Below, piece by piece: positions 1,517-64,000 of a stretch of DNA of 64,000 bases. The stretch is from an uncultured Rhodothermales bacterium (GTDB lineage Bacteria; Bacteroidota; Rhodothermia; Rhodothermales; UBA10348), in contig CAYLHF010000012.1 in the NCBI GenBank assembly GCA_964383365.1, forward strand, positions 8,745-72,744, written 5' to 3'. Made by a program: the position numbers and the translations under genes. Within the stretch, counting starts at the first letter, position 1. Each line of letters opens with the position of its first letter. Under the pieces are notes generated by a model that had not been told where the DNA came from, made no database searches, and saw only the letters and a program-made list of their open reading frames with translations.

Positions 1517-4318
1517 ATGAATTCAGGTCTACGCTCAATCGTTGCATCTCGGCCATTCTCCCTCGCGCCGACATGTACCCTTTTCGCCTTTCTGGTACTG
1601 CTTATCAGCCCCTATACCGCTTCCGGGCAGGGTAAAATTGCAGGGCGGGTGATCGATAAGGACTCAGGAGAGGCCTTGATAGGTGTAAATGTCGTCATCG
1701 ACGGGACGACCCAGGGAACCGTGACAGACACCAACGGCAATTATATCATTCTAAACGTCCGTCCGGGTGATTATACACTCGCGTTCTCCTACATCGGTTT
1801 CACCCGGGAAGTCGTTTCCGGACTCCGGGTTACTACGGGGCAGACGACACGGTACGATATTGCTCTCAGCGAACAGGTCATTGAGGGAGAAGAAATTGTC
1901 GTGCGTGCCGACCGTCCTCTGGTACGGAAGGACCTGACGGCATCGCGCAAAACGGTTGTGGCAGAAGAGATTGCTGCGTTACCCGTGGAAGGTTTTTTCG
2001 GCGTACTCGTTACCCAGGCGGGCGTTACCCAGGGCCCCAGTGGGGAGATACATATAAGAGGAGGACGAAGTAACGAGATTTCATACCTCGTCGACGGAAT
2101 GTCAGTCGGCAATCCGTTTGATACCAATGGATTGGCAACTTCTGTTGCGACGGATGCCATTCAGGAAATGACCGTGATTTCCGGCGCATTCAACGCCGAA
2201 TATGGAAAGGCGATGTCCGGTATCGTGAACCTCGTTACAAAAGAAGGATCCGATAAACTCCACGGATCTTTCAGTTACTATGGTGGCGACAATGCGACGA
2301 GCCACGGTGACTTATTCGGCACACCGAGTGGGTTCGGTGTCAACGTATTCACCTTGGAAGGAACGCTCAGTGGCGCCATCCCGCTCGCCCGAAACCTGCA
2401 CTTCTTCGTCAGCGGTCGCTACGATCAGAATGACGGAACCATTTTTGGGTGGCGCGAGCATCTTCCATCGGACTCGGCAAATTTCAATGGCGATCCGGCT
2501 CTGCTCGAAACGATCCGACAGTTCAGGCCGGACTACAATGGACCTGCGTGGTACTACGAATTGAATGGAAAACCCTGGTACGAATACGGTGAGAATGAAC
2601 AGATCCCTTCCGAAAGAGTCGCAATGAATCCCCGGAATGGACGAAATTTTATCACAAAAATAAACGGGCGTCCCTGGTCGGGTACCAAACTCGAGTATTC
2701 GCTCATTCTCGACGGTGCCAAGAGAAAGAGGTTCAATTTTGCCTATCGCTACAACCCGGACGGCGTACTCACTACACGGGACCACAGCATCAATCAGAGT
2801 CTACACTGGACTCATACGCTGACCGATAGAGCTTTCTACACCGTCCGTGCATCCGTCGCCAATAACACCCTTCGATCCCGGCTCTACTCAGATCCGGTCG
2901 ATCCGAGATACGTGTCTACCGGAAGCGTTATCGGCTTTCCTGGAAACCAGTTTCTGTTCGGAGGAAATCAGAAGGGAAACGTAAAAGAAGAATCTAAATC
3001 GTTTCGTCTGAAATCAGACTTCACGTGGCAGATTGGAATTATCCACGAAATGAAAGTAGGAGCTGAATTTCAGTCTCATCAGCTTTCAAGAGAGAATTTC
3101 ACCGTCCTGTTTGACGGGGATCGATACAGGACTCCGGAGGTTCCGGATGTAAGCACCCCCGCTCATGATCGATACGTTGACCAATCGGTACAGGAGTTCA
3201 GTGCGTATGCGCAAGACAAGCTTGAATTCGAGAATTTCATCATCAACGCAGGTCTTCGTTTTGAGCGATTCAATCCCAATGGGTCCTACATACCAGACCT
3301 GCTGAATCCGTTTACTCCCGTCGATGAGTTGGCGACGGCCAATCCTACAACGCTGTTGATGCCTCGGATAGGCGTGAGTTTCCCGATTACAGATAACGGA
3401 ATTATTCACTTTTCATACGGACATTTTGCGCAGATGCCGACACTTCGCAATTTATATCGTAACCCCGAATTTGAGTTTGGTGTCGGCTCTACGCCTACGT
3501 TCGGAAATACGAACATGAGACCCGAGCGAACCGTCACGTACGAGATGGGTCTTCAGCAACAGATTTCAGATCTGGTGGCGTTTGATATAACAGGATTCTT
3601 CAAAGACATTCGCGATTACCTCGCTCTGGAGACCCTTCGATTCAGCACCATCGCGGGCGAAGACGTGTACCGGATATATCTTAACAAGGACTACGCCAAT
3701 GTGAAGGGGATGACGTTCTCGTTGACCAAGCGGCGGAGTCGAAACGGATATCTGTCAGCCACTCTTGACTATACGCTGCAGGTAGCGGAGGGCAATAATA
3801 ATGATGCCAACTCATTCTTCTTCAACTTCCTGTCCGGAAAAGAAAATGAGTTTGAACTGGTCCCGCTATCGTTCGACCAGCGGCACATTATCTCATCTAC
3901 AATCACGCTCTCGAATCCGGGCAGTTGGGGGATCTCCTTCATCGGACAGTATGGTTCAGGGTATCCGTATACCCCACTCCTGATCGATCAGAAAATTGAT
4001 CAGCTTCCCAACCAGGGTCGTAAACCGTCCCAGTTGAAACTCGACATGCAGGCACACAAGGTGTTCACCCTTGCAGGAAGAACCAAATTGAAAGTATTTG
4101 CCAAGGTCTTTAATCTCCTCGATCGTCTCAACGAACGTTTCGTGTTCAATGACACGGGTCGTGCCACGTACTCTCTGAATGGAGAACGAGGAGTCCATGC
4201 ATCCTGGATTCCGGCATACGGCCTCCCTGGCATACATGACCTCAACGAATACAATTCACGCCCCAATTTTTATAATTCGCCACGAGAAATCAGGATCGGT
4301 GCCACGCTCAATTTCTGA
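1517..4318 (+). CDS. TonB-dependent outer-membrane receptor with N-terminal carboxypeptidase-regulatory-like domain
   Basis: GKIAGRVIDKDSGEALIGVNVVIDGTTQGTVTDTNGNYIILNVRPGDYTLAFSYIGF is the CarboxypepD_reg-like fold. A plug-like segment (EIHIRGGRSNEISYLVDGMSVGNPF) and a long barrel region follow, and the protein ends in IRIGATLNF with a terminal Phe. The ORF track starts at TTG 1445, but ATG 1517 (MNSGLRSIV...) precedes the hydrophobic signal and is more plausible. Confidence 0.85.
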   Translation: MNSGLRSIVASRPFSLAPTCTLFAFLVLLISPYTASGQGKIAGRVIDKDSGEALIGVNVVIDGTTQGTVTDTNGNYIILNVRPGDYTLAFSYIGFTREVVSGLRVTTGQTTRYDIALSEQVIEGEEIVVRADRPLVRKDLTASRKTVVAEEIAALPVEGFFGVLVTQAGVTQGPSGEIHIRGGRSNEISYLVDGMSVGNPFDTNGLATSVATDAIQEMTVISGAFNAEYGKAMSGIVNLVTKEGSDKLHGSFSYYGGDNATSHGDLFGTPSGFGVNVFTLEGTLSGAIPLARNLHFFVSGRYDQNDGTIFGWREHLPSDSANFNGDPALLETIRQFRPDYNGPAWYYELNGKPWYEYGENEQIPSERVAMNPRNGRNFITKINGRPWSGTKLEYSLILDGAKRKRFNFAYRYNPDGVLTTRDHSINQSLHWTHTLTDRAFYTVRASVANNTLRSRLYSDPVDPRYVSTGSVIGFPGNQFLFGGNQKGNVKEESKSFRLKSDFTWQIGIIHEMKVGAEFQSHQLSRENFTVLFDGDRYRTPEVPDVSTPAHDRYVDQSVQEFSAYAQDKLEFENFIINAGLRFERFNPNGSYIPDLLNPFTPVDELATANPTTLLMPRIGVSFPITDNGIIHFSYGHFAQMPTLRNLYRNPEFEFGVGSTPTFGNTNMRPERTVTYEMGLQQQISDLVAFDITGFFKDIRDYLALETLRFSTIAGEDVYRIYLNKDYANVKGMTFSLTKRRSRNGYLSATLDYTLQVAEGNNNDANSFFFNFLSGKENEFELVPLSFDQRHIISSTITLSNPGSWGISFIGQYGSGYPYTPLLIDQKIDQLPNQGRKPSQLKLDMQAHKVFTLAGRTKLKVFAKVFNLLDRLNERFVFNDTGRATYSLNGERGVHASWIPAYGLPGIHDLNEYNSRPNFYNSPREIRIGATLNF

Positions 4319-10965: not shown

Positions 10966-10981
10966 TGGCACAGTATTAGCC
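10966..10981 (+). promoter_or_regulatory. Candidate sigma-54 (-24/-12) promoter upstream of the exopolysaccharide cluster
   Basis: The sequence is TGGCACagtatTAGCc. The -24 TGGCAC is perfect and the GG-N10-GC spacing is correct, but the -12 element is TAGC rather than TTGC. It lies ~45 nt upstream of ATG 11025. Confidence 0.4.
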
Positions 10982-11024: not shown

Positions 11025-12137
11025 ATGTCCAACGCTAGAACTCTGACAAGAACCCTCATAGCAGGTGGGTCCGGCTTTATCGGCTCCCACCTCTGCGAAC
11101 GATTCCTTGAGGATGGACATCACGTTATCTGCGTCGACAATCTCATTACGGGACGTCGATCCAATATCAAACATCTACTGGGACATCCTCGATTTGCGTT
11201 CCTGGAACAGGATGTTTCGGTCTCCTTCACCATTGATGGTCCACTCGACAATATTCTTCACTTTGCCTGTCCCGCGTCCCCCATCGACTATTTGAAATAC
11301 CCGCTGGAAACACTGCAGGTGGGATCAGCCGGAACCAAGAATCTGCTTGACCTTGCCGTAGAGAAGAAATCCCGATTCCTTTTCGCGTCCACCAGTGAAG
11401 TTTACGGAGACCCTCTGGTTCACCCGCAAAAGGAATCATACTGGGGCAACGTAAATCCCATCGGTCCCCGAAGTGTATACGATGAGTCCAAACGTTTCTC
11501 AGAGGCGATCGTCTCTGCCTATCGCAGGGAAATGGGCGTTGAAGCCCGCATTATACGAATATTCAATACGTATGGGCCCCGCATGCGGCTCGACGACGGG
11601 AGGGTCCTTCCAACATTCATGGGACAGGCCCTCAGAGGCGAGCCTCTCACCATATTCGGAGATGGATCGCAGACCCGGTCTTTTTGCTATGTAGACGATC
11701 TGGTAGAAGGAGTTGTTCGGCTGCTCCAGAGCAACGAACCGTTGCCGGTGAACGTCGGAAACCCGGAAGAAATATCGATTGGTGGATTTGCCGAGGAAGT
11801 GATTGCCCTGACCGGTGCAAGGAGTTCTGTAACGTATCGAGCCCTGCCGGAAGACGATCCGAAAATTCGAAAGCCGGACATCACCCGCGCCTTCAATATC
11901 CTGGGTTGGTTCCCGAAAGTCGATCGTTCGAACGGACTGAAGAGAACACTTTCGTACTTCCAAAACGAAGTTCGGTGTGAAGCGTCCCCCGTATCCGAGC
12001 GGATGTCGGGTTTCGCTACAGAGTCGACGAAAAACCACACAACCCGGGTCACTCCTGATCGACAACCATCGGCACCACATGGTCATACTAACGGATTAAG
12101 AAACCCGGCCGATATTAAATCCCGTATGGTGGATTGA
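11025..12137 (+). CDS. UDP-glucuronate decarboxylase (UDP-xylose synthase-type SDR) with an atypical ~55-aa C-terminal tail
   Basis: It has the [35 protein letters not shown] Rossmann motif, then [40 protein letters not shown] with the YxxxK catalytic motif, which is characteristic of UXS/ArnA-decarboxylase-type enzymes. The low-complexity tail runs from about [12 protein letters not shown] to the end. Confidence 0.8.
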
Positions 12138-12155: not shown

Positions 12156-14738
12156 ATGAATAACAGTATAGACCACGATCACAGTTCTCAGCCCGTTCGA
12201 GAGCCAGGAAATGAGCACTCGGACGCACTACGCTGGCAGGCTCCGAGACCGCGCATTGACCACGATTCATCGGATGTTCCGTCTGATTCGGAATCCCGGC
12301 GTCCCACACGACATGGTCGCCGATCGAATGCCGATCCGGACACCCACGCGGACTCCGGATCATCTGAACTGCTGCCGGCTCTTCCATCGTCGACTCCGCC
12401 CGAGTGGACACGTCTGGTCGATGGCCGCCCTCAATCCGCACCCGCCCCTCCCCCGTTGTTTCCGGAACCTGCCCCAGCTGATTACGGTGGAGCCGATGAG
12501 TCTGTACTGGCCGTTCTGGGAAGAAGAAAAGCTGTTTTCTTACTAATCGCGATTCTTAGTTGGCTCTCCGTAGCGGCATATATCACTATTGTACCTCCAT
12601 CGTATGAGGCAACGACGCTCCTCATGGTCGATACTCGGGGATTCAGAAAGGAGGTGGAGGATCTTCCTCGAATAAATCGCGAATCGGCTCAGTTCGGGCT
12701 CGGTAAGATTGCGAACCACGCGCTCATATTGCAGACCTCGAATGAACTGGTTGAGACCACCGTGGATCAGCTCCTCGCAATGAAGCATGCGGGACTCATT
12801 ACGACTCCATTAACACTGTTCGACGGACTCGATCCCAATTTGGGTCGGGCCTCGGTTCTGAAACGATTCAGGAAAAAATTTGTCACGGTCAGTCCTCAAC
12901 CCAATGACGACGATGAACCCGATGCCATAATGGTCAGTGCCCTGAGCACCGAACCTGCGGAAGCTGCTCTGATTTCAAACCTGTATGCCCAGTCATATAT
13001 AAAGTCTGTTGTCGGAGCCCTGGAAGCGCAATATGTCGAAGCCCGGCAGTATTATGCTGATCTTCTGGTTAGCCAGGATGTAGTGATGGCAAATCTCGAT
13101 TCTTCTCTGCACGCTTTCGCCGCAAAGAGAGGAGACATTATGCTGGAGGAAGAAGAGTCTCACACAGTCAAGCAAATTTCCCTGCTTCGATCCAAGCTTG
13201 ATGACTCCCGGATCGAAATAAGTCAGTATGAAGCCAGAATATCCTCGCTGATCGATCAATTCAACAAACTGGAGCCGCAATTGCACGCTGAGCAAGCGGC
13301 ATCCGGATTGGATACACGTCTCCAGCAAACGAATGCCCGAATCGCAGAGGTAGAGTTGTCCATCGAGCAGTTCTATACCAAAAATCCCGGACTCCGAGAG
13401 CATCCCGAGACGAGCGAAGACTTGATGGATCTGCTTCTTGAAGCGGAATCACTTCGTCTCAGAATTAATCGGCTTTCAGCGGATTATGTGGATCAGGTCG
13501 TTGCCGTTGGAGGAATCGATCTTCAGAAGCTGGACTCTGGCGTTGCCATTATGGCCCAGCTGCGGCGCCAAATCGCGGAAGAGCGCGTGTCCCTGTCCGC
13601 TGAAAAGGCACGGGAAGCCGCTATTCTGACCCGCCTGGCCCAATATGAGCAACAGCGAAAAATTCTTCCGACTCAGCAGGTCGACCTCGAAAAACTTGAG
13701 CGCCAGCATGCCGTTGCGGAGACCAGACACGACGAACTGAAAGAGAAAATCAGAAAAATAGACGAGGCAGAGAGTTCACAGCGAATATTTGCCCAGGTAG
13801 CCGTACCCGCCGTAACCCCGATTGAACCCGTACGGGCACCGTCAGTAATCGGCGGTCTCGGATTCGTTTTGGGCATCTTACTGGCCATCGGCGGCGCATT
13901 TGCCCGCGACAAAACCGATTCTCGGATATTTGAACCGACCGATATGGTCCCGGACCAGATTGATCTCATCGGAACTATACCCGATCTGCGGAAAGAGCAT
14001 TCGATCTTCAGAAGCAGGAAATCATTTGCACCCTTCTTCGAGAGAACGGTATCTACAGATCTGGTCAGCCTACTTCACCCACAGTCTGCCGTATCTCACG
14101 CGATCAAGAGTCTTCAAATGCGCCTTTCCGGGGATCCCTCCGAAATGCAGGTATTTGTTGTCACGAGCCCGGAAATGGAAGACGGCAAGAGTATGATCGC
14201 TGCGAATTTCGCCGTAACACTCGCCCAATCCGGCTATCGAACGCTCCTTCTTGATGCAGATATCTACCATCCATCCGTCAGCCGGTTACTGGGTCTTACC
14301 AAGCAGGCTGAGTTCGATCTGGAGACCTGTACGTTTTCTGACGGACGGGGCGTAGAGGCCTTTTCCGCAGCCCTGCCGAATCTTTACGCACTCTCCCTGC
14401 ATGGACCTGATAACGGAACTGCTGAATTCTTGATGTCCACGCACCTGGTCCCTGTTATCGAACGGGTCAGAAATCATTTCGATGTCGTCGTAATCGATAC
14501 GCCACCGGTAACGCACTCAACCGATGCGTTGCGACTCGGTCAACTCAGTGACGAGGTATTTCTGGTTGCACGCACCGGCAAGACGCATTTCGAGTTATTC
14601 CAGAAATCCGTAACGGATATAGACCGTGCGGCCAGCCGACCTCCTCGCGTCATATTGAATGGCTACACGGATAAGGCGGACGCCAGTAAGCACAAGCGAC
14701 GGCGCTACAACAAACGCACGCAGCACAGAACGTCGTGA
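12156..14738 (+). CDS. Polysaccharide co-polymerase / BY-kinase-like protein (Wzc/GumC type), non-canonical
   Basis: A ~120-aa disordered Pro/Ser/Asp-rich N-terminus is followed by a TM helix, a long coiled-coil periplasmic region and a second TM helix. The P-loop domain has VFVVTSPEMEDGKSM (Walker A), LLLDADIYHPS (Walker A'-like, lacking the usual Arg) and VVVIDTPPV (Walker B). The C-terminal tail (GYTDKADASKHKRRRYNKRTQHRTS) has only 2 Tyr and no Tyr cluster. Confidence 0.75.
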   Translation: MNNSIDHDHSSQPVREPGNEHSDALRWQAPRPRIDHDSSDVPSDSESRRPTRHGRRSNADPDTHADSGSSELLPALPSSTPPEWTRLVDGRPQSAPAPPPLFPEPAPADYGGADESVLAVLGRRKAVFLLIAILSWLSVAAYITIVPPSYEATTLLMVDTRGFRKEVEDLPRINRESAQFGLGKIANHALILQTSNELVETTVDQLLAMKHAGLITTPLTLFDGLDPNLGRASVLKRFRKKFVTVSPQPNDDDEPDAIMVSALSTEPAEAALISNLYAQSYIKSVVGALEAQYVEARQYYADLLVSQDVVMANLDSSLHAFAAKRGDIMLEEEESHTVKQISLLRSKLDDSRIEISQYEARISSLIDQFNKLEPQLHAEQAASGLDTRLQQTNARIAEVELSIEQFYTKNPGLREHPETSEDLMDLLLEAESLRLRINRLSADYVDQVVAVGGIDLQKLDSGVAIMAQLRRQIAEERVSLSAEKAREAAILTRLAQYEQQRKILPTQQVDLEKLERQHAVAETRHDELKEKIRKIDEAESSQRIFAQVAVPAVTPIEPVRAPSVIGGLGFVLGILLAIGGAFARDKTDSRIFEPTDMVPDQIDLIGTIPDLRKEHSIFRSRKSFAPFFERTVSTDLVSLLHPQSAVSHAIKSLQMRLSGDPSEMQVFVVTSPEMEDGKSMIAANFAVTLAQSGYRTLLLDADIYHPSVSRLLGLTKQAEFDLETCTFSDGRGVEAFSAALPNLYALSLHGPDNGTAEFLMSTHLVPVIERVRNHFDVVVIDTPPVTHSTDALRLGQLSDEVFLVARTGKTHFELFQKSVTDIDRAASRPPRVILNGYTDKADASKHKRRRYNKRTQHRTS

Positions 14739-55873: not shown

Positions 55874-57562
55874 TCAGACCTGATCCAGCTTGAACTCGGT
55901 CAGCCTGCGATAGAACGTCGCCCGAGATATGCCAAGCAATTTGGCGGCCGCTTTGCGGTTGCCCTCCGTGTGCCGAAGGGCCGCCAGGATACGATCACGC
56001 TCATCGTCGGGTAATCCGTCAGGAAGCAAATCGGCCGCCACCGACGTGCGAACCTCCGGCGGGAGCGAATTCGCCTCGATGATACTCCCGGGAGTATGAA
56101 TCATTGCGTATTCAATCGCATTGGCAAGTTCGCGCACGTTTCCCGGCCAATTGTACTCCAGCATGCAACGGACCGCCGATTCACCGAGTGTGTCAATTTC
56201 TACTCCTGATTTTGCCGATAGGCCACTCAGGAAGTGGTACGCAAGGAGTGGAATATCGCTTCTCCGTTCCCGGAGAGGAGGCAGCTCCAGGCGGGCGACT
56301 CGGATGCGGAATAACAGGTCCTGTCTGAAGGTCCCGTTCTCGACCTCGGTGGGAAGATGTCGGTGCGAAGCGGCAACAATACGAACATCTACCTTTCTTG
56401 CCTTGGTCTCACCGACACGCGTAACGGTTCGTTCCTCCAGGACGCGAAGCAGATTCACCTGAATATCCAACGGAATATCTCCAATCTCATCCAGGAACAA
56501 GGTTCCCCCGTTCGCAGCGCCAAAGTAGCCGGGTTCGTCCGAAATGGCACCGGTGAATGAGCCTCTCTTATGTCCGAAAAGCTGACTCGCTACCAGCGAC
56601 TCTGTGAGTGCACCGCAGTTCACTGCTACAAAGGGCTTGGATGCCCTGGCACTGGCATCGTGAATGGCACGAGCAACGAGTTCTTTTCCGGTCCCCGTCT
56701 CTCCCTCTATTAAGACAGTAGAATCGAAGCGTGCGGCCGACTTGATTTGATCAAAAATGCGATTCATCGGCTCACTGTCGCCGATAATGTCTCCGCCTTT
56801 GTTTTGTCGGGCCAGCTGTCGTCGGAGGTCATGGACCTTCGTAACATCGTAAAAAACGAACAAGCGCCGTCGCTTTTCCTGAGGATCTCTGCGGATGTCG
56901 AGTTCCATGTGATAGGATTGGCCGTGGTCGAGAGAAATCCTCGTAGGAATACGCGTCGACGTTCCGTCTTCAGAATCAAATTTAGCGCGTACGCGCGAGA
57001 TCGTCTCCGACTGAAAGGGCAGCACTCGATCCCACATAAGGCCCAGGGCATCAGACTCATTGATTCCGAGTAATCGTCGAGCTACCTGACTGACGAACAC
57101 GATTCTACCGTCCGCGTCCGTAATTACCGTCCCGATTCGGAGTCCGTCGAGCAGAAGCTGCAAATTATCCCGATCCCGGCGAAGTAGTCTGTGAGATCTG
57201 TATTTGGATAATGCAACCTCGATATTCGCACGTAACTCGCTCTCCTGAAACGGTTTGATCACATACCCGAATGGTCCGGTGGCGTTGGCTCTATTGAGCG
57301 TTTGTTCGTCTCCAAAAGCCGTGAGAAAAACAACAGGCACGTCTTGTGACTCCCTGATCAACTGCGCAGCTTCGATCCCATCCATCGTCCCTTCCAGATG
57401 GACATCCATGAGGATCAGGTCCGGCCGTAGAGCCGACGCTCGCCTGACGGCCTGCTCGCCTGAAACAACTTTATCGACCACCTGATACCCCAGCTGCTGC
57501 AGGTGGTATTCCAACTCCAGAGCGGTTATCGCTTCATCTTCAACTATCAGTACCTTTACCAC
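55874..57562 (-). CDS. Sigma-54-dependent response regulator (REC-PAS-AAA+-HTH, NtrC family)
   Basis: The REC domain is VLIVEDE...DLILMDVHL. The AAA+ sigma-54 interaction domain has GETGTGKELVARAIH, GHKRGSFTGA and LFLDEIGD. The C-terminal Fis-type HTH is NRKAAAKLLGISRATFYRRL. Confidence 0.9.
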   Translation of the reverse strand: MVKVLIVEDEAITALELEYHLQQLGYQVVDKVVSGEQAVRRASALRPDLILMDVHLEGTMDGIEAAQLIRESQDVPVVFLTAFGDEQTLNRANATGPFGYVIKPFQESELRANIEVALSKYRSHRLLRRDRDNLQLLLDGLRIGTVITDADGRIVFVSQVARRLLGINESDALGLMWDRVLPFQSETISRVRAKFDSEDGTSTRIPTRISLDHGQSYHMELDIRRDPQEKRRRLFVFYDVTKVHDLRRQLARQNKGGDIIGDSEPMNRIFDQIKSAARFDSTVLIEGETGTGKELVARAIHDASARASKPFVAVNCGALTESLVASQLFGHKRGSFTGAISDEPGYFGAANGGTLFLDEIGDIPLDIQVNLLRVLEERTVTRVGETKARKVDVRIVAASHRHLPTEVENGTFRQDLLFRIRVARLELPPLRERRSDIPLLAYHFLSGLSAKSGVEIDTLGESAVRCMLEYNWPGNVRELANAIEYAMIHTPGSIIEANSLPPEVRTSVAADLLPDGLPDDERDRILAALRHTEGNRKAAAKLLGISRATFYRRLTEFKLDQV

Positions 57563-57586: not shown

Positions 57587-60500
57587 TCAGTGAGTACCCA
57601 TTTTTTGCCTGACCTCATCCTCCGATACGGACCCATGAATCGAAACGACTGGAAAAATGATGTCAAAACGGGCACCCTGAGGACCTGACTTCCGTGTTTC
57701 AGCTATCGTAAAACGACCGCCCAGACGCGAGACCAGACCTCTTACAAGATTCAGTCCAAGAGACGCCTCGGTGTGCGTTGCATAATCGTCTGACAGTCCC
57801 GCTCCGTCGTCGGATACCGTGAGACGATAAAATTCCTGTTCACGCTCCATACGGATTTTAATCGTGCCCCCTTCGGAATTATCTGGAAAGGCATGCTTCA
57901 GCGCGTTTGACACCAGTTCTGTCAGAATCAACCCGCAAGAGATAGCCCTGTCTACGTCCATATAATGTATGGGACACTGAATCTGAATAAGAATGTTTCT
58001 GTTTTGCGCATCATAGGATACGAGCAGTTGCTCCGTAATACCTCTAAGGTAGCCGTCAAAATCCAACTCGGCCAGATTGTCAGACCTGTACACTCGTTCG
58101 TGGATCGTAGAAATCGAATAAATTCGATCCCGACATTCGTCAAACAGGCGTTTTGTCGCATCGTCACTAACCTGGCGAGACTGCAAGCGAAGAAGACTCG
58201 AGATCATCTGCAGGTTATTCTTGACTCTGTGATGGACCTCCCGGAGTAGAATATCTTTCTGTTCGAGAGAATCCCTGAGCTCTTCGGTTGTGGCCTGAAG
58301 TTCATCGGTCGCCGTCTCAAAATCATGGGTTCTCGCAGTTACCTCCTTCTCAAGAATTTTCTGCCTGTGACGGAGACTCCTGACCCGAACCCTATGTCCG
58401 AACGCAATAGCTCCGGAAAAGAGTAGACCGACGATTATCCAGAAGAATATCGTCTGGTAGAAGAACGGTTCGACCGTGAACGAAATGGAAGCTCCCTCTC
58501 GATTCCAAACGCCATCATTGTTGGATGCCATTAACTCGAACGTATACGTACCGGGAGCCAGATGAGTAAATGTGGCAGACGTTTCATTGTCAGCATTTAC
58601 CCATACATCCTCGTAACCCTCGAGTCGATATCGGTATGAAACCGTATTCGGGTCAACCAGACTCAATCCGGCATACGCTATCTCGATTCTCTTGACACTC
58701 GGAGATACCTCGACCCCTTTTCTGAGATCTGCCCGAATATCATCCAGATAGACGCTCTCGATAACGACGGGAGGAATCGTCTCATTCCGTCTGAGATTTG
58801 TCGGATTTACGACGGCTACGCCGGAGACTGTCGGAAACCACAGGCGTCCATCGGAACCACGCCAACCTGCCGGCTGAACCCCACCATTTACCTCGCGAGT
58901 TCGGAGTCCGTCGTCGGTACCATAGATCGCGTTGCCTACCCGGTCGGCTGCTCCACGTCCCACGTCGTCGAGATCGCGTTTAGAAACTGAAAACACGCCC
59001 CGATTACAACCCATCCACAGGTTGCCGTTATCATCTTCGAGAATTTGAAAAATTTTATCGTCGAACAGCCCCTCTCTGGATCCGAATGTCAGGAAGCGAT
59101 TGTCCTTAAATCGAGTCAAGCCGCCACCGTACGTTCCTATCCAGAGCGTACCGTCCTGATCCAGGTAAAGGGCAGATATGGTGTTACTCCCGAGTCCCGA
59201 ATCGGTCGTAAACGACGTAAATTTGCCGTTATTGAAGAGATTGAGCCCGTCTTCGTAGGTTCCTATCCAGAGCTCACCGTTCGGGCTCTCTGCAATCGCT
59301 GTTACCGAATTACCCGACAGCCCATCGGCAGTCGTATACGACCGGATAGATGACCCGTCAATAACAGAAAGTCCGTTGTCGGTACCTACCCAGAGGCGGC
59401 CATCAAATGACGTGTACAACGCATAAACGGCGTTACTGGCCAACCCGTTAGTCGACGTGTAGGACCGAATTCGCCGGTCTTTCCAGAGAGTGAGCCCGGC
59501 GTCCACCGTTCCAATCCAATATGCTCCGTTCGGGGCGCCGGCTATACTCGTGACCACGTTACTCGGTAGTCCGGACTCGGTCGTGATCGATGTCAGACTC
59601 GATCCAACTAATTTGGAAATTCCACCACCGAATGTGCCAACAAGAATGGCACCGGCTCTGTCCTCAAAGACTGTTGATACGGCGTTGGAAACAAGTCCTT
59701 CTCGCTCTGACCACGTCGTAAATGCTCCGTCACGTAGCCTGTTGAGTCCACCGCCACCGGTTCCTATCCAGAGACTTCCCTCTCGATCTTCCATCACGGA
59801 GAGTACGCGCCCGTTGGAGAGACCTTCCTCCGGCGTGAAGGTATCCATCGAGCCATCATGATATCTGGCCATTCCAGTATGGTCCAGGCCCAGCCAAATG
59901 GACCCGGAACCATCTTCAACAATAGACCACACGACATCTTCAGGCCACCCGTTGGACGGGTCAAGATGCCGTACATGCTCTCCTTCGATTCTCATCAACC
60001 CCGAGTGTGTCCCGACCCAGACACGATCTTCCCGGTCGATATAGAGTTCCTGGACCAGCGACCCCGAAACGCTTCGGATCTCATGGGGTGCCTGGTCCGC
60101 TCCGACGTGCATTTCTGCCAGGCCCTGATCCGTTCCGATCCATAATTCATCGCTCGCCGAAAGTGCGATCGTCTGGACAAGATTCCCTGGAAGCCCCTTC
60201 GACGTATCGAACTTCGTACAAACATCCTGGACGCATGAAAGCAGACCATTTTTACTCGTGCCCAGAAATAGAGTACCATTCGATGATAGTTCTATATCAT
60301 TGATTCGAACGGACCCGAAAGATGTCAGGGGCATATAGTTTTGGACGACGCCATCCCGATAATACAGGACGCCGGCACCGTCCGTCCCAATCCATATTCG
60401 CCCGTCTGCACCCTCTTTCAGGGCGAGAACATTATGACCTCGCTCGAATGCCAGCGTATTTCTTCCGTTATACACTGTAAACGTGCGACCATCGAAGCGA

Positions 60501-60721
60501 GCGAGACCTTCTTCGGTGCCTAACCACAGATATCCGTTCGAAGATTGGATGAGGGCATGAACTGTATTCTGAGGTAGGCCTTCGTCGTACTGCCAGACAT
60601 CGTGTAAAAGCTGGGTGATGGCCTTCTGCGGATCCAGAGGTTGAAACAATCCTGTTGCCGACAGTCTTACGGGCTGGGTGAGACTGACGAGGGCGACGAC
60701 AGCAGATAAGACTTTATTCAT
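57587..60721 (-). CDS. Sensor histidine kinase with Reg_prop beta-propeller repeats, Y_Y_Y domain and HisKA_2-type transmitter
   Basis: Propeller repeats (DG.LWIGT..GL) are followed by YRYRLEGYEDVW, a TM helix (IFFWIIVGLLFSGAIAF), a coiled coil, LLREVHHRVKNNLQMISSLLRLQ (HisKA_2/HWE-like H-box) and an ATPase region (ELVSNALKHAF, DDGAG). It ends 24 nt upstream of the regulator gene. Confidence 0.85.
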   Translation of the reverse strand: MNKVLSAVVALVSLTQPVRLSATGLFQPLDPQKAITQLLHDVWQYDEGLPQNTVHALIQSSNGYLWLGTEEGLARFDGRTFTVYNGRNTLAFERGHNVLALKEGADGRIWIGTDGAGVLYYRDGVVQNYMPLTSFGSVRINDIELSSNGTLFLGTSKNGLLSCVQDVCTKFDTSKGLPGNLVQTIALSASDELWIGTDQGLAEMHVGADQAPHEIRSVSGSLVQELYIDREDRVWVGTHSGLMRIEGEHVRHLDPSNGWPEDVVWSIVEDGSGSIWLGLDHTGMARYHDGSMDTFTPEEGLSNGRVLSVMEDREGSLWIGTGGGGLNRLRDGAFTTWSEREGLVSNAVSTVFEDRAGAILVGTFGGGISKLVGSSLTSITTESGLPSNVVTSIAGAPNGAYWIGTVDAGLTLWKDRRIRSYTSTNGLASNAVYALYTSFDGRLWVGTDNGLSVIDGSSIRSYTTADGLSGNSVTAIAESPNGELWIGTYEDGLNLFNNGKFTSFTTDSGLGSNTISALYLDQDGTLWIGTYGGGLTRFKDNRFLTFGSREGLFDDKIFQILEDDNGNLWMGCNRGVFSVSKRDLDDVGRGAADRVGNAIYGTDDGLRTREVNGGVQPAGWRGSDGRLWFPTVSGVAVVNPTNLRRNETIPPVVIESVYLDDIRADLRKGVEVSPSVKRIEIAYAGLSLVDPNTVSYRYRLEGYEDVWVNADNETSATFTHLAPGTYTFELMASNNDGVWNREGASISFTVEPFFYQTIFFWIIVGLLFSGAIAFGHRVRVRSLRHRQKILEKEVTARTHDFETATDELQATTEELRDSLEQKDILLREVHHRVKNNLQMISSLLRLQSRQVSDDATKRLFDECRDRIYSISTIHERVYRSDNLAELDFDGYLRGITEQLLVSYDAQNRNILIQIQCPIHYMDVDRAISCGLILTELVSNALKHAFPDNSEGGTIKIRMEREQEFYRLTVSDDGAGLSDDYATHTEASLGLNLVRGLVSRLGGRFTIAETRKSGPQGARFDIIFPVVSIHGSVSEDEVRQKMGTH

Positions 60722-60923
60722 AGCTATAGGTACGCGCTACAAAATGACGGAAACCGGTAATTTCCGATCACAAAAACCAATCCAAATCGATCTTTAATAG
60801 AAATTTAATTTTGAATCAACAGAAATGGATGGGATGTGAAGGATAATATAGATTCTATTCCGTATTTACCGTAGCAGGCCAATGAAAGAGCGTCCTACCG
60901 TGCCACCCCCACCGTTTTACTTT

Positions 60924-60939
60924 GGCACCGCTTTTGCAA
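60924..60939 (+). promoter_or_regulatory. Consensus sigma-54 (-24/-12) promoter of the S8 protease gene
   Basis: TGGCACcgcttTTGCA is an exact match to TGGCAC-N5-TTGCA. It lies ~40 nt upstream of ATG 60980, in the divergent intergenic region shared with the kinase/NtrC-type regulator operon. Confidence 0.8.
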
Positions 60940-60979
60940 GTTCAGCCTGCCCCTTCGTTCGAAAGAACCGTTGACCGTT

Positions 60980-62353
60980 ATGAACAAGCAGAGAAAGTGG
61001 GTTCTCCACGGAACCCTCCTCATCACGTTCCTGCTGACATCGCGATGCACTGACCGTGCTCCGACGTCTGCCATGGAATCTGACCCGGTATTCTCCGTCG
61101 AGAGTACTGCCAAGACTCGCCATATGAACCTCCTCGGGACGTCCTTCGATGCTCTCGGGAAGGGCTCAGGCACGGCACAAATAATCGTCAAATTTTCCAA
61201 CCCTACGCTTGATGCGAATGGTTGGCTTCGTCGCTATGGATGGCTCAGGCGATACGGCTGGCTGCGACGTCATGACGTGACAGGATCCATAGTCGATCTG
61301 GGTGTGGCCGCGACGATGAATAAAAAAGATATTCGGAAGGCCCTCGGAATCGGAGATCATGAAGACGCGCTGGCTACAGCCATCGAGTTGTTGTCCGGAG
61401 ATCCGGATGTGAGTCTTATCGAACCGGATATTCCGGTGTCCGGTCCTGACGGCGGGTTCTCCGGAGCGAAGATGAAAGACCAGTATATCTCGTGGGGGAT
61501 CCGTGATATCGGAGCGATCGGAGGGTCTGACGGAGAGGATCAGGATGACGGCGATGATGAGGATCGGGACGAGATGGATGATGTGGAAGACGTAAGCGTT
61601 TTCGTTCTCGATACGGCATTTGGCAAAGACGATCTTAATCTGAAAGAGGAGCGTATTTTCAGTAACGGTAAGGGGCCTAAATACTTCACACACGGCTATC
61701 ATATTGCGGCGACAATCGGAGCAAAAGACAATGACAAGGGTGTTTTGGGCGTTGCTCCAGGTGTGGAAATGAACAGTTTTGTTGTTCTCAATGCGGCGGG
61801 GAAAACAGATGAATCCGTGGTCATTCAGGCATTGAATGAAGTCATGGCCTATGCCGCGTCGAACGGCGACAAGCATTCGAATCCCATCATTGTCAGTCTC
61901 AGTCTCGGGGAGAACATCCATTCAACAGAGGCTACGCTTCTCGATGACGCTATCACGGACGCAGTAGCCATGGGTATCACCGTGGTTGTCTCGGCAGGTA
62001 ATGACGGCGTCGATGCCGCTACGGTCACACCCGCCCATGCATCCGGAGCCATCACAGTCGGTGCGTATGATCATGATCACGACTGGGCATCGTTTTCGAA
62101 CTATGGTAAGACCGTCAATATCGTAGCTCCCGGAGTCGATGTCGTTTCTCTGGGACGGATCAAAAAGGGACGGACGGAACTGACTATCGCAACCGGCACA
62201 TCCATGGCGGTACCCTATGTAGTCGGTGCCGCAGCTCGTTACCTGAGTGAGCACCCGGGAGCCGACCGTGAGGAAGTCCTCAACGCCCTGATGAGCTCAC
62301 CGATCTCCGGTCCAGATGGTGCAAGTTATCCTATGGTCACCGTCAGAGAGTAG
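60980..62353 (+). CDS. Subtilisin-like serine protease (peptidase S8) with unusual N-terminal region
   Basis: The catalytic triad contexts are VFVLDTAF (Asp), HGYHIAATIG (His) and GTSMAVPYVVGAAA (Ser). The N-terminal signal-like segment is WVLHGTLLITFLLTS. The pro-region contains GWLRRY GWLRRY GWLRRH and an acidic tract GEDQDDGDDEDRDEMDDVED. I saw no T9SS CTD. Confidence 0.85.
   Translation: MNKQRKWVLHGTLLITFLLTSRCTDRAPTSAMESDPVFSVESTAKTRHMNLLGTSFDALGKGSGTAQIIVKFSNPTLDANGWLRRYGWLRRYGWLRRHDVTGSIVDLGVAATMNKKDIRKALGIGDHEDALATAIELLSGDPDVSLIEPDIPVSGPDGGFSGAKMKDQYISWGIRDIGAIGGSDGEDQDDGDDEDRDEMDDVEDVSVFVLDTAFGKDDLNLKEERIFSNGKGPKYFTHGYHIAATIGAKDNDKGVLGVAPGVEMNSFVVLNAAGKTDESVVIQALNEVMAYAASNGDKHSNPIIVSLSLGENIHSTEATLLDDAITDAVAMGITVVVSAGNDGVDAATVTPAHASGAITVGAYDHDHDWASFSNYGKTVNIVAPGVDVVSLGRIKKGRTELTIATGTSMAVPYVVGAAARYLSEHPGADREEVLNALMSSPISGPDGASYPMVTVRE
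61220..61273 (+). repeat. Three tandem 18-nt units encoding GWLRRY/GWLRRY/GWLRRH with divergent codons
   Basis: The units are ggt tgg ctt cgt cgc tat / gga tgg ctc agg cga tac / ggc tgg ctg cga cgt cat. Every degenerate codon position differs between copies while the peptide is conserved. Confidence 0.95.
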
Positions 62354-62385
62354 ACCGTATACAGGAACGGGATCCAGACCAGCTT

Positions 62386-62426
62386 TTGAGCCGCTCTCGA
62401 CTGAGTCGAGAGCGGCTCAATTTTTT
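62386..62426 (+). terminator. Rho-independent terminator of the S8 protease gene
   Basis: A perfect 16-bp stem, ttgagccgctctcgac (62386-62401) / gtcgagagcggctcaa (62405-62420), has the loop tga and is followed by TTTTTT (62421-62426). Confidence 0.9.
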
Positions 62427-62490
62427 CGTTCCAATGCACATCGCACGCCGAGAAAAACCCCGAAATATATGGCCGCCCTGAATCATTAAT

Positions 62491-62541
62491 GTGTCTCACA
62501 TGAGACACGCATGAGACACCGACGAGACACTTTCTGTGTCT
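62491..62541. repeat. Helically phased heptamer array: GTGTCTC - GAGACAC x3 - GTGTCTt
   Basis: The copies are GTGTCTC at 62491-62497, GAGACAC at 62502-62508, 62513-62519 and 62524-62530, and the inverted GTGTCT at 62536-62541. Start-to-start spacings are 11, 11, 11 and 12 bp. The array lies between convergent genes, downstream of the terminator at 62386-62426. Confidence 0.9.
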
Positions 62542-62605
62542 TTTGACGGGCCCGAGACCTGGATGCAACCGCAACACCCGTCGTGGAGGGAGCCGTCTAC
62601 ACCCA

Positions 62606-64000
62606 CTAACGAATGAGCGTCAGCGTGTGGGTTCGCTGTCCAGACGGAGCCACCAACCTGCATAGATAGGTTCCGCCGGCGAGTTGATCGGGCGTGAACT
62701 CCATCTCGTGTACCCCCATCGAGAGCCTGCCAGAGAACACAGAACCCACTCTCCGACCCGTCATATCGAATACGTCCACGGAAACATCGCCCGCCTTTGC
62801 GATGGAAAACCGGATCGTTGTTCGGTCCGAGAACGGATTGGGGTAGTTTTCGAATGTGGACTCGATGTCTAACGGAGCATCCTGATCCGTCCGTTCTGTC
62901 AATCGGTTACCGTCATAGACCGCTTCGCCCGTTCCGTCTGATACGGCTCGATGAGAGGCTGAAAGGTCTACACGCGTGGGGATTTCGACGTATCTCTTTC
63001 CCCCGGCTGTCTGAATTCTAATCGTGTATTGATCGGGTATTTCACGTACGATCCAGGTCCACGAGCGTTCTTCAAGTGGAATACCTGACGCCAGCGTAGT
63101 AAAGTCATTTCCACTTCCGCGCGAAATCAAGATATCGACACTTCCGGATCGAAAACCTTTGTATTTCCACGTGATGGGCACCTCATCGTTAATAACAACA
63201 GAAGAGAGCCCGGTTTTGTCAGGGGCAATCATAACTCCAAGTTCGTACGGCGTAATGCGCACCTTTCCCCGTACATCGACAAATTGCCCCGTTGTCTGAT
63301 CGTAAATTCCGACATCATAGGAACCTGATCCGTCCAGACAGTCAATCCGCATGGGTTCACGGGGTAATTCAATCCGGACCACCTCGGTTTGTCCTGCCGG
63401 AATCCGAAGCTTTGCCGTCGTCACGTGGCAATCGAGTTGAAGGAATACCGGTCCACCTGTTCTGACAGGTGCCATATAAATGTCCAGTGGATACTCGCCC
63501 GAATCGTGCTTAGTCGTGTTGGAAACAGACAGACTCAACAAACGGCCATCTCGGCGATCCATTGGGATACGGGTAGTCGAAACCGATTCAGCATCTTCAG
63601 GAGATAAGGTGAGATGAACCCAATTGTCGAAACGTACGGTCTCGGTCGGTCCCTGAAACCCATCATCTGTCATCGCCCGGACGTACCACGTTCCCGGCGA
63701 GAGACAGGCAATGTCATCCGGACGAATGGTAACATCGCCCGAGAGCGCTTCGTCCGGATCAAAATGGAATTCAAGCGACGAGACCATGCAGTCGTTGAGA
63801 TCGACCTGGGTATCCGATGAAAAGTACAAGCTGATATAGTCGGTCCGAAACTCGGTCTTATTATTTCTGGCAGCTACCCGAAGTACGATCACCTGATCCT
63901 CCCCTTCCGGAGGAGTCAATCCGATATCTGAAACAACACTCAAGAAATGGTTGGTATCGCCCGGAGTCCCCGGGTTTCCCATCGTGCCAGAGATACGTCT
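62606..64000 (-). CDS. T9SS-sorted hypothetical protein (5' end beyond window)
   Basis: The frame stays open to the window end, with no stop upstream of the ATG at 63982. The C-terminus ENYPNPFSDRTTIRFSIAKAGDVSVDVFDMTGRRV...GTYLCRLVAPSGQRTHTLTLIR is a T9SS CTD. The body looks like beta-sandwich repeats and I recognise no catalytic motif. Confidence 0.65.
   Translation of the reverse strand, partial: RRISGTMGNPGTPGDTNHFLSVVSDIGLTPPEGEDQVIVLRVAARNNKTEFRTDYISLYFSSDTQVDLNDCMVSSLEFHFDPDEALSGDVTIRPDDIACLSPGTWYVRAMTDDGFQGPTETVRFDNWVHLTLSPEDAESVSTTRIPMDRRDGRLLSLSVSNTTKHDSGEYPLDIYMAPVRTGGPVFLQLDCHVTTAKLRIPAGQTEVVRIELPREPMRIDCLDGSGSYDVGIYDQTTGQFVDVRGKVRITPYELGVMIAPDKTGLSSVVINDEVPITWKYKGFRSGSVDILISRGSGNDFTTLASGIPLEERSWTWIVREIPDQYTIRIQTAGGKRYVEIPTRVDLSASHRAVSDGTGEAVYDGNRLTERTDQDAPLDIESTFENYPNPFSDRTTIRFSIAKAGDVSVDVFDMTGRRVGSVFSGRLSMGVHEMEFTPDQLAGGTYLCRLVAPSGQRTHTLTLIR

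Follow-up and report, generated by a model that had tools for sequence, protein, structure and literature searches.

What is the role of a short array of phased repeats that lies past both the stop codon and the terminator of a protein-coding gene? The question is raised by a 64,000 nucleotide stretch of an uncultured Rhodothermales bacterium (GenBank assembly GCA_964383365.1, contig CAYLHF010000012.1, positions 8,745 to 72,744), referred to here as the window. The array occupies positions 62492-62543 of the window. It is flanked on the left by the terminator of a gene for an S8 (subtilisin-family) peptidase and on the right by the stop, at 62606, of a convergent gene bearing a type IX secretion system (T9SS) sorting tail. 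The initial annotation of this DNA offered a cooperative protein-binding array, a small structured RNA or terminator switch, and a recombination or partition-type site as possible explanations. On comparison with other genomes the array is probably an enhancer of the sigma-54-dependent response regulator encoded 5 kb away at 55874-57562, with the promoter of the S8 gene as its target. That the array is the binding array of this activator is considered very likely from the genes and sites found beside its relatives. That it acts as a 3' enhancer of the S8 promoter is given an even chance.

Composition, conservation and grammar of the array

The array consists of five half-sites. Half-site 1 (62492-62498, minus strand) reads TGTCTCA (in minus-strand terms, TGAGACA), forms the left arm of a core dyad and was invariant in a six-array alignment. 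The right arm is half-site 2 (62501-62507, plus strand), TGAGACA, which was defined by alignment and spacing statistics. Half-site 3 (TGAGACA, 62512-62518) and half-site 4 (CGAGACA, 62523-62529) are direct repeats on the plus strand, each 11 bp past the half-site before it. The closing inverted half-site (62537-62543, minus strand) reads TGTCTTT and is degenerate, with TGTCTCA in its place in relatives. The heptamers listed in the initial annotation were found exactly where it had put them (GTGTCTC at 62491-62497, GAGACAC at 62502, 62513 and 62524, and GTGTCTT at 62536-62542), and its start spacings of 11, 11, 11 and 12 were all reproduced. A near-copy that it had noted, GAGACCT, is present at 62554-62560 as described but was without counterpart in the orthologous arrays and is probably outside the element.

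The terminator of the S8 gene (62386-62426, plus strand) lies between the S8 stop codon and the array and is made up of a 17-bp perfect stem (62386-62420) and a T-run. Both this hairpin and the convergent T9SS-tailed gene had been described previously and both are present. The array is therefore past the S8 stop and the terminator, and the earlier description of this as an unusual place for an operator was correct.

The motif was not enriched in the window overall, with 11 heptamer copies observed and 10.1 expected. Four of the 11 copies crowd into 40 bp. Among 300 Markov-1 simulated windows none had four exact hexamers in 60 bp and two had three. The array is the sole phased chain of the motif in the 64-kb window. 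No tRNA genes were found in the window, and the base composition around the array was unchanged. No Rfam match was obtained for the array; a permissive threshold gave noise only, mostly on the terminator. No sigma-70-like promoter was found in 61900-63000.

The proposed regulated gene encodes the S8 peptidase (60980-62353, plus strand; the mechanical open reading frame (ORF) start is a TTG at 60971). Its product contains a tandem hexapeptide, GWLRRY GWLRRY GWLRRH, in the N-terminal region (61220-61275). A genome collection, with one genome per species, was scanned for three consecutive copies of GAGACAC-N4. The full architecture with different spacers was seen in two of the matches listed and in no others among them, namely a Rhodothermales metagenome-assembled genome (MAG), L002, and a Bacteroidota MAG, L099. 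In both the array is directly past the stop of a protein which is 43-44% identical to the S8 peptidase of the window and carries the same tripled hexapeptide. Further S8 loci were obtained through a peptidase protein search, a DNA-pattern scan of metagenomes (L171), and a regulator protein search with contig look-up.

Eight independent S8-linked arrays were found (the window, L099, L002, L121/L122, L171, L184, L188, and L190/L191). In the seven lineages other than the window the array (inverted, three direct, inverted) lies 8-140 nt past the S8 stop, and the S8 proteins are 36-45% identical to that of the window. An alignment of six S8-linked arrays showed the half-sites to be invariant and the spacers to be free. 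At this level of protein identity, invariant half-sites between free spacers are a strong footprint of selection on the half-sites. The initial annotation had proposed a search of related genomes, and would have taken lack of conservation in relatives as a refutation. The grammar was kept after S8 in seven other lineages, and a chance low-complexity remnant does not agree with a conserved architecture in which spacers are free and half-sites are not.

The surroundings of the S8-linked arrays are less constant. In most orthologues the array comes before the terminator and so would be transcribed; a terminator equivalent follows the array in L099 and L002 and precedes it in the window. The neighbor beyond the array is convergent in the window and L171 and co-directional in L099, L188, and L121. 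The more distant S8 homologue loci L120, L123, L183, L185, and L186 were without an array. In L186 a cyclase-output sensor replaces the kinase found beside S8 in the window, no activator is in view, and no array is present past S8, which fits a link between array and activator. Longibacter (L187) has just two half-sites, upstream of the kinase, and its contig stops 83 bp past the activator gene.

A number of side observations were made on the S8 loci. All S8 homologues have 2-9 copies of a similar [hydrophobic]-L-x-R-[Y/H] unit. Variants include GFLRRH x3, GFLKRH x3, AFLRRY x3, and an ILDRY/VLERY series, with approximately nine copies in P0015. A lipoprotein-like signal (L-T/S-G-C) is found at the start of many homologues. 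Between array and terminator, ggaagaggggtccgat(g/t)cctgg is present in L099 (~3600-3640) and L002 (~975-1010), and forms a 9-bp hairpin in L099. Its conservation may reflect only the closeness of the two genomes.

Grammar statistics were based on 97 half-sites from 21 arrays. The array of GAGACAC repeats in the initial annotation was real, but the conserved unit is TGAGACA: T precedes GAGACA in 81 of the 97 half-sites and the trailing C is present in 38. The distance from the first inverted to the first direct half-site was 10 bp in 21 of 21 arrays, giving the dyad TGTCTCA-N2-TGAGACA. Direct half-sites followed each other at 11 bp in 33 of 36 cases. The closing inverted half-site was 11-13 bp past the last direct one in most of the arrays. 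Some arrays grow leftward by extra inverted copies at 11 bp and are symmetric, with two inverted and then two direct half-sites. Multiple sites are thus present with one invariant dyad, the remainder being direct half-sites at 11 bp and the closing inverted one, unlike repeated dyads. The layout looks like a dimer site extended outward along one helix face, and the rigid 10/11-bp spacing is as expected for protein docking. No published description of the motif (TGTCTC/GAGACA with sigma-54 regulators) was found in a literature search of incomplete coverage.

The activator family and the S8 promoter

The proposed array binder is a response regulator encoded at 55874-57562 (minus strand). Pfam domains were REC, PAS, AAA+ (sigma-54 interaction), and HTH_8. 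It is the sole sigma-54 activator (bacterial enhancer-binding protein, bEBP) in the 64 kb, and the six-frame translation contains a single GAFTGA-type motif, which is its own. No named NCBIfam equivalog was matched at cut-off. The presumed partner of the activator is a sensor histidine kinase (57587-60721, minus strand) in which Pfam predicted Reg_prop beta-propellers, Y_Y_Y, HisKA_2, and HATPase_c. The kinase-activator pair is divergent from S8 and this synteny was kept in L171, L099, L188, and L190.

Metagenome contigs were scanned by DNA alone with the pattern TGTCTCA-N3-GAGACA-N5-GAGACA. Fifty-nine array loci were found in AT-rich and GC-rich genomes alike, many with the complete grammar. 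All ORFs within 3.5 kb of these arrays were clustered. The largest neighbor family was a REC-PAS-AAA+-HTH_8 regulator, 40-60% identical to the window activator over its full length. This family was present in 17 of the 59 array loci compared to 1 of 117 control loci (Fisher p = 2e-8), the controls being the microsatellite matches of the genome-collection scan. Activator orthologues flanked arrays in at least 14 independent loci. Where metagenome loci bear the activator, the array is usually on the same strand and begins some tens of bases past the activator stop.

Sigma-54 promoters were scored against the consensus TGGCAC-N5-TTGC. In nine of 11 unique cases the array strand carried a promoter with at most one mismatch at a distance of 110-170 bp from the start of the array (chance ~2e-18). 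The predicted position of the array upstream of a sigma-54 promoter in these metagenome relatives is classical enhancer geometry. The recurrence of one activator family beside the arrays, with sigma-54 promoters at enhancer distance, supports the cooperative protein-binding array that was the first option of the initial annotation. The genes downstream of the metagenome arrays vary and include DUF4402 proteins, a NusG paralogue, MucR, single-domain receivers, and another activator. It follows that the regulator and site are conserved and the regulon is not. The activator family comprised 917 database proteins at E <= 1e-120, with members in Rhodothermales, Salinibacter, Longibacter, Acidobacteria, Deltaproteobacteria, and Planctomycetes.

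A separate AT-rich group of metagenome loci (L128, L132, L137, L151, L156, L174, L175, L177, and L180) contained short arrays (inverted, direct, direct). Two arrays were sometimes present 73 bp apart, each preceded by aagttaatttcactgaagttaattta. Such arrays may represent a distant member of the regulon, or else an element with no relation to it.

The proposed target of the enhancer in the window is the sigma-54 promoter TGGCACCGCTTTTGC (60923-60937, plus strand), whose -24/-12 elements precede the S8 ATG by approximately 45 nt. No other sigma-54 promoter in the 64 kb is free of mismatches. It is also the best-conserved block of the kinase-S8 intergenic alignment, with one-mismatch equivalents in L099, L188, and L190. 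The window contains one activator, one perfect sigma-54 promoter, and one array, all within 7 kb. L188 (GCA_017642665.1) and L190, 21.7 kb each, likewise have a single array, next to the same kinase-activator pair. In L190 no sigma-54 site other than the S8 promoter has one mismatch or fewer; L188 has one more, at 13983, away from the array. No half-sites were found in the kinase-S8 intergenic region of the window, L099, L188, or L190. No sigma-54 promoter with three or fewer mismatches was found past the array on the array strand in the window, L099, L002, L171, L121, or L184. A hidden small sigma-54-dependent gene past the array, at which this search was aimed, thus gained no support.

Two other sequences were observed in connection with sigma-54 promoters. 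TGGCACAGTATTAGC (10966-10980, plus strand) has one mismatch to the consensus and lies approximately 45 nt upstream of an ORF at 11025-12137, just as the S8 promoter lies ahead of its gene. It has no array of half-sites nearby and may be a second sigma-54 promoter, under the control of a different activator from beyond the window. A semi-conserved A-rich block, CAAnAnAAA, is present approximately 100 bp upstream of the S8 promoter (window ~60820-60840) and also in L099, L188, and L190. It could be a DNA-bending or nucleoid-protein site that aids looping.

A sigma-54 promoter cannot fire without a bound activator. The sole candidate for the activator site that the S8 promoter requires is the array, 1.4-1.57 kb downstream; for this reason a 3' enhancer looping over the gene is proposed. 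In the proposed mechanism the Reg_prop/Y_Y_Y histidine kinase (57587-60721) would phosphorylate the regulator. The C-terminal Fis-type helix-turn-helix domains of the regulator would read the TGAGACA half-sites, and a dimer would seat on the core dyad TGTCTCA-N2-TGAGACA. More subunits would then join on the 11-bp-spaced direct half-sites and the closing inverted one, nucleating the active AAA+ ring. The ring would contact sigma-54 RNA polymerase in the closed complex at TGGCACCGCTTTTGC, leading to the open complex and S8 transcription. A DNA loop of approximately 1.57 kb would be required because the array lies past the gene. We infer the physical binding, the order of assembly, and the contact with the S8 promoter from the 3' side. 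A broader proposal is made tentatively and at somewhat under an even chance. A widespread, uncharacterised REC-PAS activator subfamily may read a templated enhancer, a dyad and then TGAGACA half-sites at 11 bp on one helix face, possibly with one half-site per subunit of the ring. A Rhodothermales-like clade may have kept this enhancer fixed over a long evolutionary span 3' of its target, where it would act from 1.4-1.6 kb downstream, over the entire coding region and, in this window, across a terminator.

Evidence against the proposed enhancer and alternative explanations

A number of observations weigh against the enhancer as proposed. The start of the array is 1,568 bp past the promoter, beyond the stop codon and the terminator, and not in the canonical upstream position. 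NtrC-type enhancers are normally paired dyads within approximately 500 bp upstream of the promoter (PMC11841059), whereas this array is made up mostly of direct repeats. The S8 promoter candidate of L171 has three mismatches and L121 has no candidate. L171 and L121 share a sigma-54-like motif, TGGAACGG..T.TGC, which is aimed at the kinase gene. It reads TGGAACGGATTATGC in L171 (9308-9322, minus strand) and TGGAACGGGTTGTGC in L121 (812-826, minus strand). L121 also has two half-sites at the kinase start (GGTGTCTCAtcggcGTGTCTCA, 757-778). These sequences suggest sigma-54-dependent autoregulation of the kinase-regulator operon in some lineages, where the array may serve autoregulation or both divergent promoters. 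Salinibacter altiplanensis (L189), a cultured member of the family, had no array in its 12-kb contig. No activator gene is seen in approximately 40 of the 59 metagenome loci, many of them short contigs, and the AT-rich group has paired short arrays with neither an activator nor a sigma-54 promoter. The link between activator and array is one of association between genes and predicted sites.

The activator could bind the array for another purpose. The array would then be a roadblock or insulator at the S8 3' end against read-through or antisense transcription coming from the convergent gene, a titration sink for the regulator, or an enhancer of the kinase-regulator operon, all of which together are considered unlikely. 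No terminator is present between the S8 stop and the array in L099, L002, L171, L121, L188, or L190, where polymerase would meet the bound complex, but a roadblock is superfluous in the window, as a strong terminator is already ahead of the array. Insulation is not a common task at these loci, given that the orientation of the downstream neighbor varies among lineages. Autoregulation would account for the sigma-54-like promoters of L171 and L121, which are aimed at the kinase and not at S8, and for the L121 half-sites, which overlap the kinase start. Against this, no sigma-54 promoter was found on the kinase side in the window, L099, L188, or L190. All of these readings also leave the S8 sigma-54 promoter in need of an activator site, for which no other candidate is present. 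It is quite improbable that the array is bound by a different protein, such as an OmpR/PhoB-type winged-helix response regulator, which reads 7-bp direct repeats with 4-bp spacers. A direct-repeat period of 7 + 4 = 11 bp is the hallmark of the Pho box (PMC3333781), and direct repeats are atypical of NtrC-type regulators (PMC11841059), although the NtrC-family regulator DVU2394 has a direct-repeat site (PMC3333781). No OmpR-family or other transcription factor gene is conserved beside the arrays, the sigma-54 activator being the only recurrent regulator. The promoters at enhancer distance from the arrays are sigma-54 and not sigma-70 promoters. The invariant 10-bp core dyad fits a dimeric helix-turn-helix protein and not winged helices arranged head to tail.

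The array could also act as RNA, as a structured element of the 3' untranslated region, a small RNA, or terminator-switch hairpins after S8. Each strand is predicted to fold into two hairpins whose stability exceeds that of shuffles (plus strand z = -3.4, minus strand z = -2.9), the array would be inside the S8 transcript in most orthologous loci, and TTTT comes after the last hairpin in the window. The stems, however, are the inverted half-sites themselves. Ten of the 14 pairs are invariant and one shows a double change, and covariation was no better than in shuffles (193 of 500 were as high). The middle direct copies are equally conserved though unpaired in the best fold. In the window a terminator separates the S8 gene from the array, and the order of terminator and array is not kept among the orthologous loci. 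The same array is found upstream of promoters, beside the activator gene, in unrelated genomes. The covariation check proposed in the initial annotation thus gave its small RNA or terminator switch no support above shuffles, and a function as RNA is very improbable. A chance remnant, an 11-bp microsatellite, or a mobile-element or phage end (transposase or integrase arm sites, iterons, or a partition site) is given almost no weight. Perfect 11-bp GAGACAC tandem repeats are common in many genomes, often near contig ends, and among the matches listed were found in Microcoleus, Abditibacterium, Streptomyces, and others from many phyla. Those repeats copy the spacer too and have no inverted half-sites, an unrelated architecture, whereas the spacers of the S8-linked arrays differ within and between arrays and their half-sites are invariant. 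Transposon ends, considered because of the microsatellites near contig ends, were rejected as the inverted half-sites and variable spacers are absent there. A search of 2.9 million viral contigs gave no match, and the genes that recur beside the arrays include no recombinase, transposase, or partition gene. The position of the array is fixed relative to one chromosomal gene in eight lineages. The recombination or partition-type site of the initial annotation lacks support on the same grounds.

Some of the perfect repeats were observed in particular settings. One conserved repeat locus was present in many Microcoleus genomes and a multi-copy repeat in an Abditibacterium genome. In L022 an 11-bp GAGACAC repeat adjoins a partial sigma-54 activator.

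Comparison with known systems and significance

The array was compared to the enhancers of NtrC-family regulators, such as NtrC at glnA and NmpR of Myxococcus (PMC11841059). It is like them in being a cluster of sites for an oligomerising REC-AAA+-Fis-HTH regulator, with the cognate regulator and kinase nearby and a -24/-12 promoter as the target. The metagenomic relatives of the array are also placed like them, approximately 100-170 bp upstream of a promoter. It is unlike them in its grammar. NtrC-family enhancers have two or three separate dyads 10-15 bp apart, whereas the array has a single dyad, 11-bp direct half-sites, and a closing inverted one. The position also differs, the array of the S8 clade being approximately 1.4-1.6 kb downstream of the promoter and past the stop codon.

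In Pseudomonas aeruginosa four tandem (C/G)TGTC repeats upstream of pilA were reportedly identified as PilR sites by Jin et al. in 1994. "GTCT elements" are a hallmark of PilR sites (PMC6058289). PilR is a sigma-54 activator which reads short GTCT/TGTC tandem repeats in place of classical dyads, and the half-site TGTCTC contains both motifs. Together with DVU2394 it is a precedent for direct-repeat sites among sigma-54 regulators. PilR differs in that it has no PAS domain and binds upstream of its promoter. Neither the half-site nor the 10/11-bp grammar nor the bracketing by inverted copies is known to have been described for it. The likeness is one of motif.

The ftr elements of Caulobacter are no more than approximately 100 bp away from the start site, in the 5' end of the transcription unit or close to it. 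They are reported to be downstream enhancers of FlbD at flagellar promoters (Gober & Shapiro 1992, PMC275648; Mullin & Newton 1993, PMC204304; both as cited in PMC3096577). Like the proposed enhancer, ftr is a natural sigma-54 enhancer 3' of the transcription start which acts by looping. Unlike ftr, the S8 array is past the 3' end of a 1.4-kb gene, in the window past a terminator as well, and its position is conserved across lineages. The Pho boxes of PhoB/PhoP (PMC3333781) resemble the array in having 11-bp tandem units of seven conserved and four variable bases on one helix face. They differ in the protein fold, in serving sigma-70 promoters, and in having no bracketing inverted half-sites, and no OmpR-family gene is found beside the arrays.

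The element is likely a sigma-54 enhancer whose motif and grammar have no known description, and whose 3' position, conserved in the S8 clade, is unusual. Sigma-54 enhancers are the textbook case of bacterial action at a distance, and their natural sites are almost always just upstream of the promoter. To our knowledge, action from a remote or downstream site has been seen mainly in engineered constructs and in a few Caulobacter elements close to the promoter. If the proposed enhancer is real, its retention at a 3' site in eight lineages would demonstrate that long-range loops across genes are employed and retained in nature, and the S8 locus would be a natural, conserved, gene-spanning enhancer-promoter loop in bacteria. 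It would also be a simple system for studying the feedback that transcription across an occupied enhancer has on activation. A dyad with phased direct half-sites, unlike paired dyads, may inform how the activator ring assembles on DNA. Assigning the motif and grammar to a large, uncharacterised activator family would make the regulons of its members predictable from sequence.

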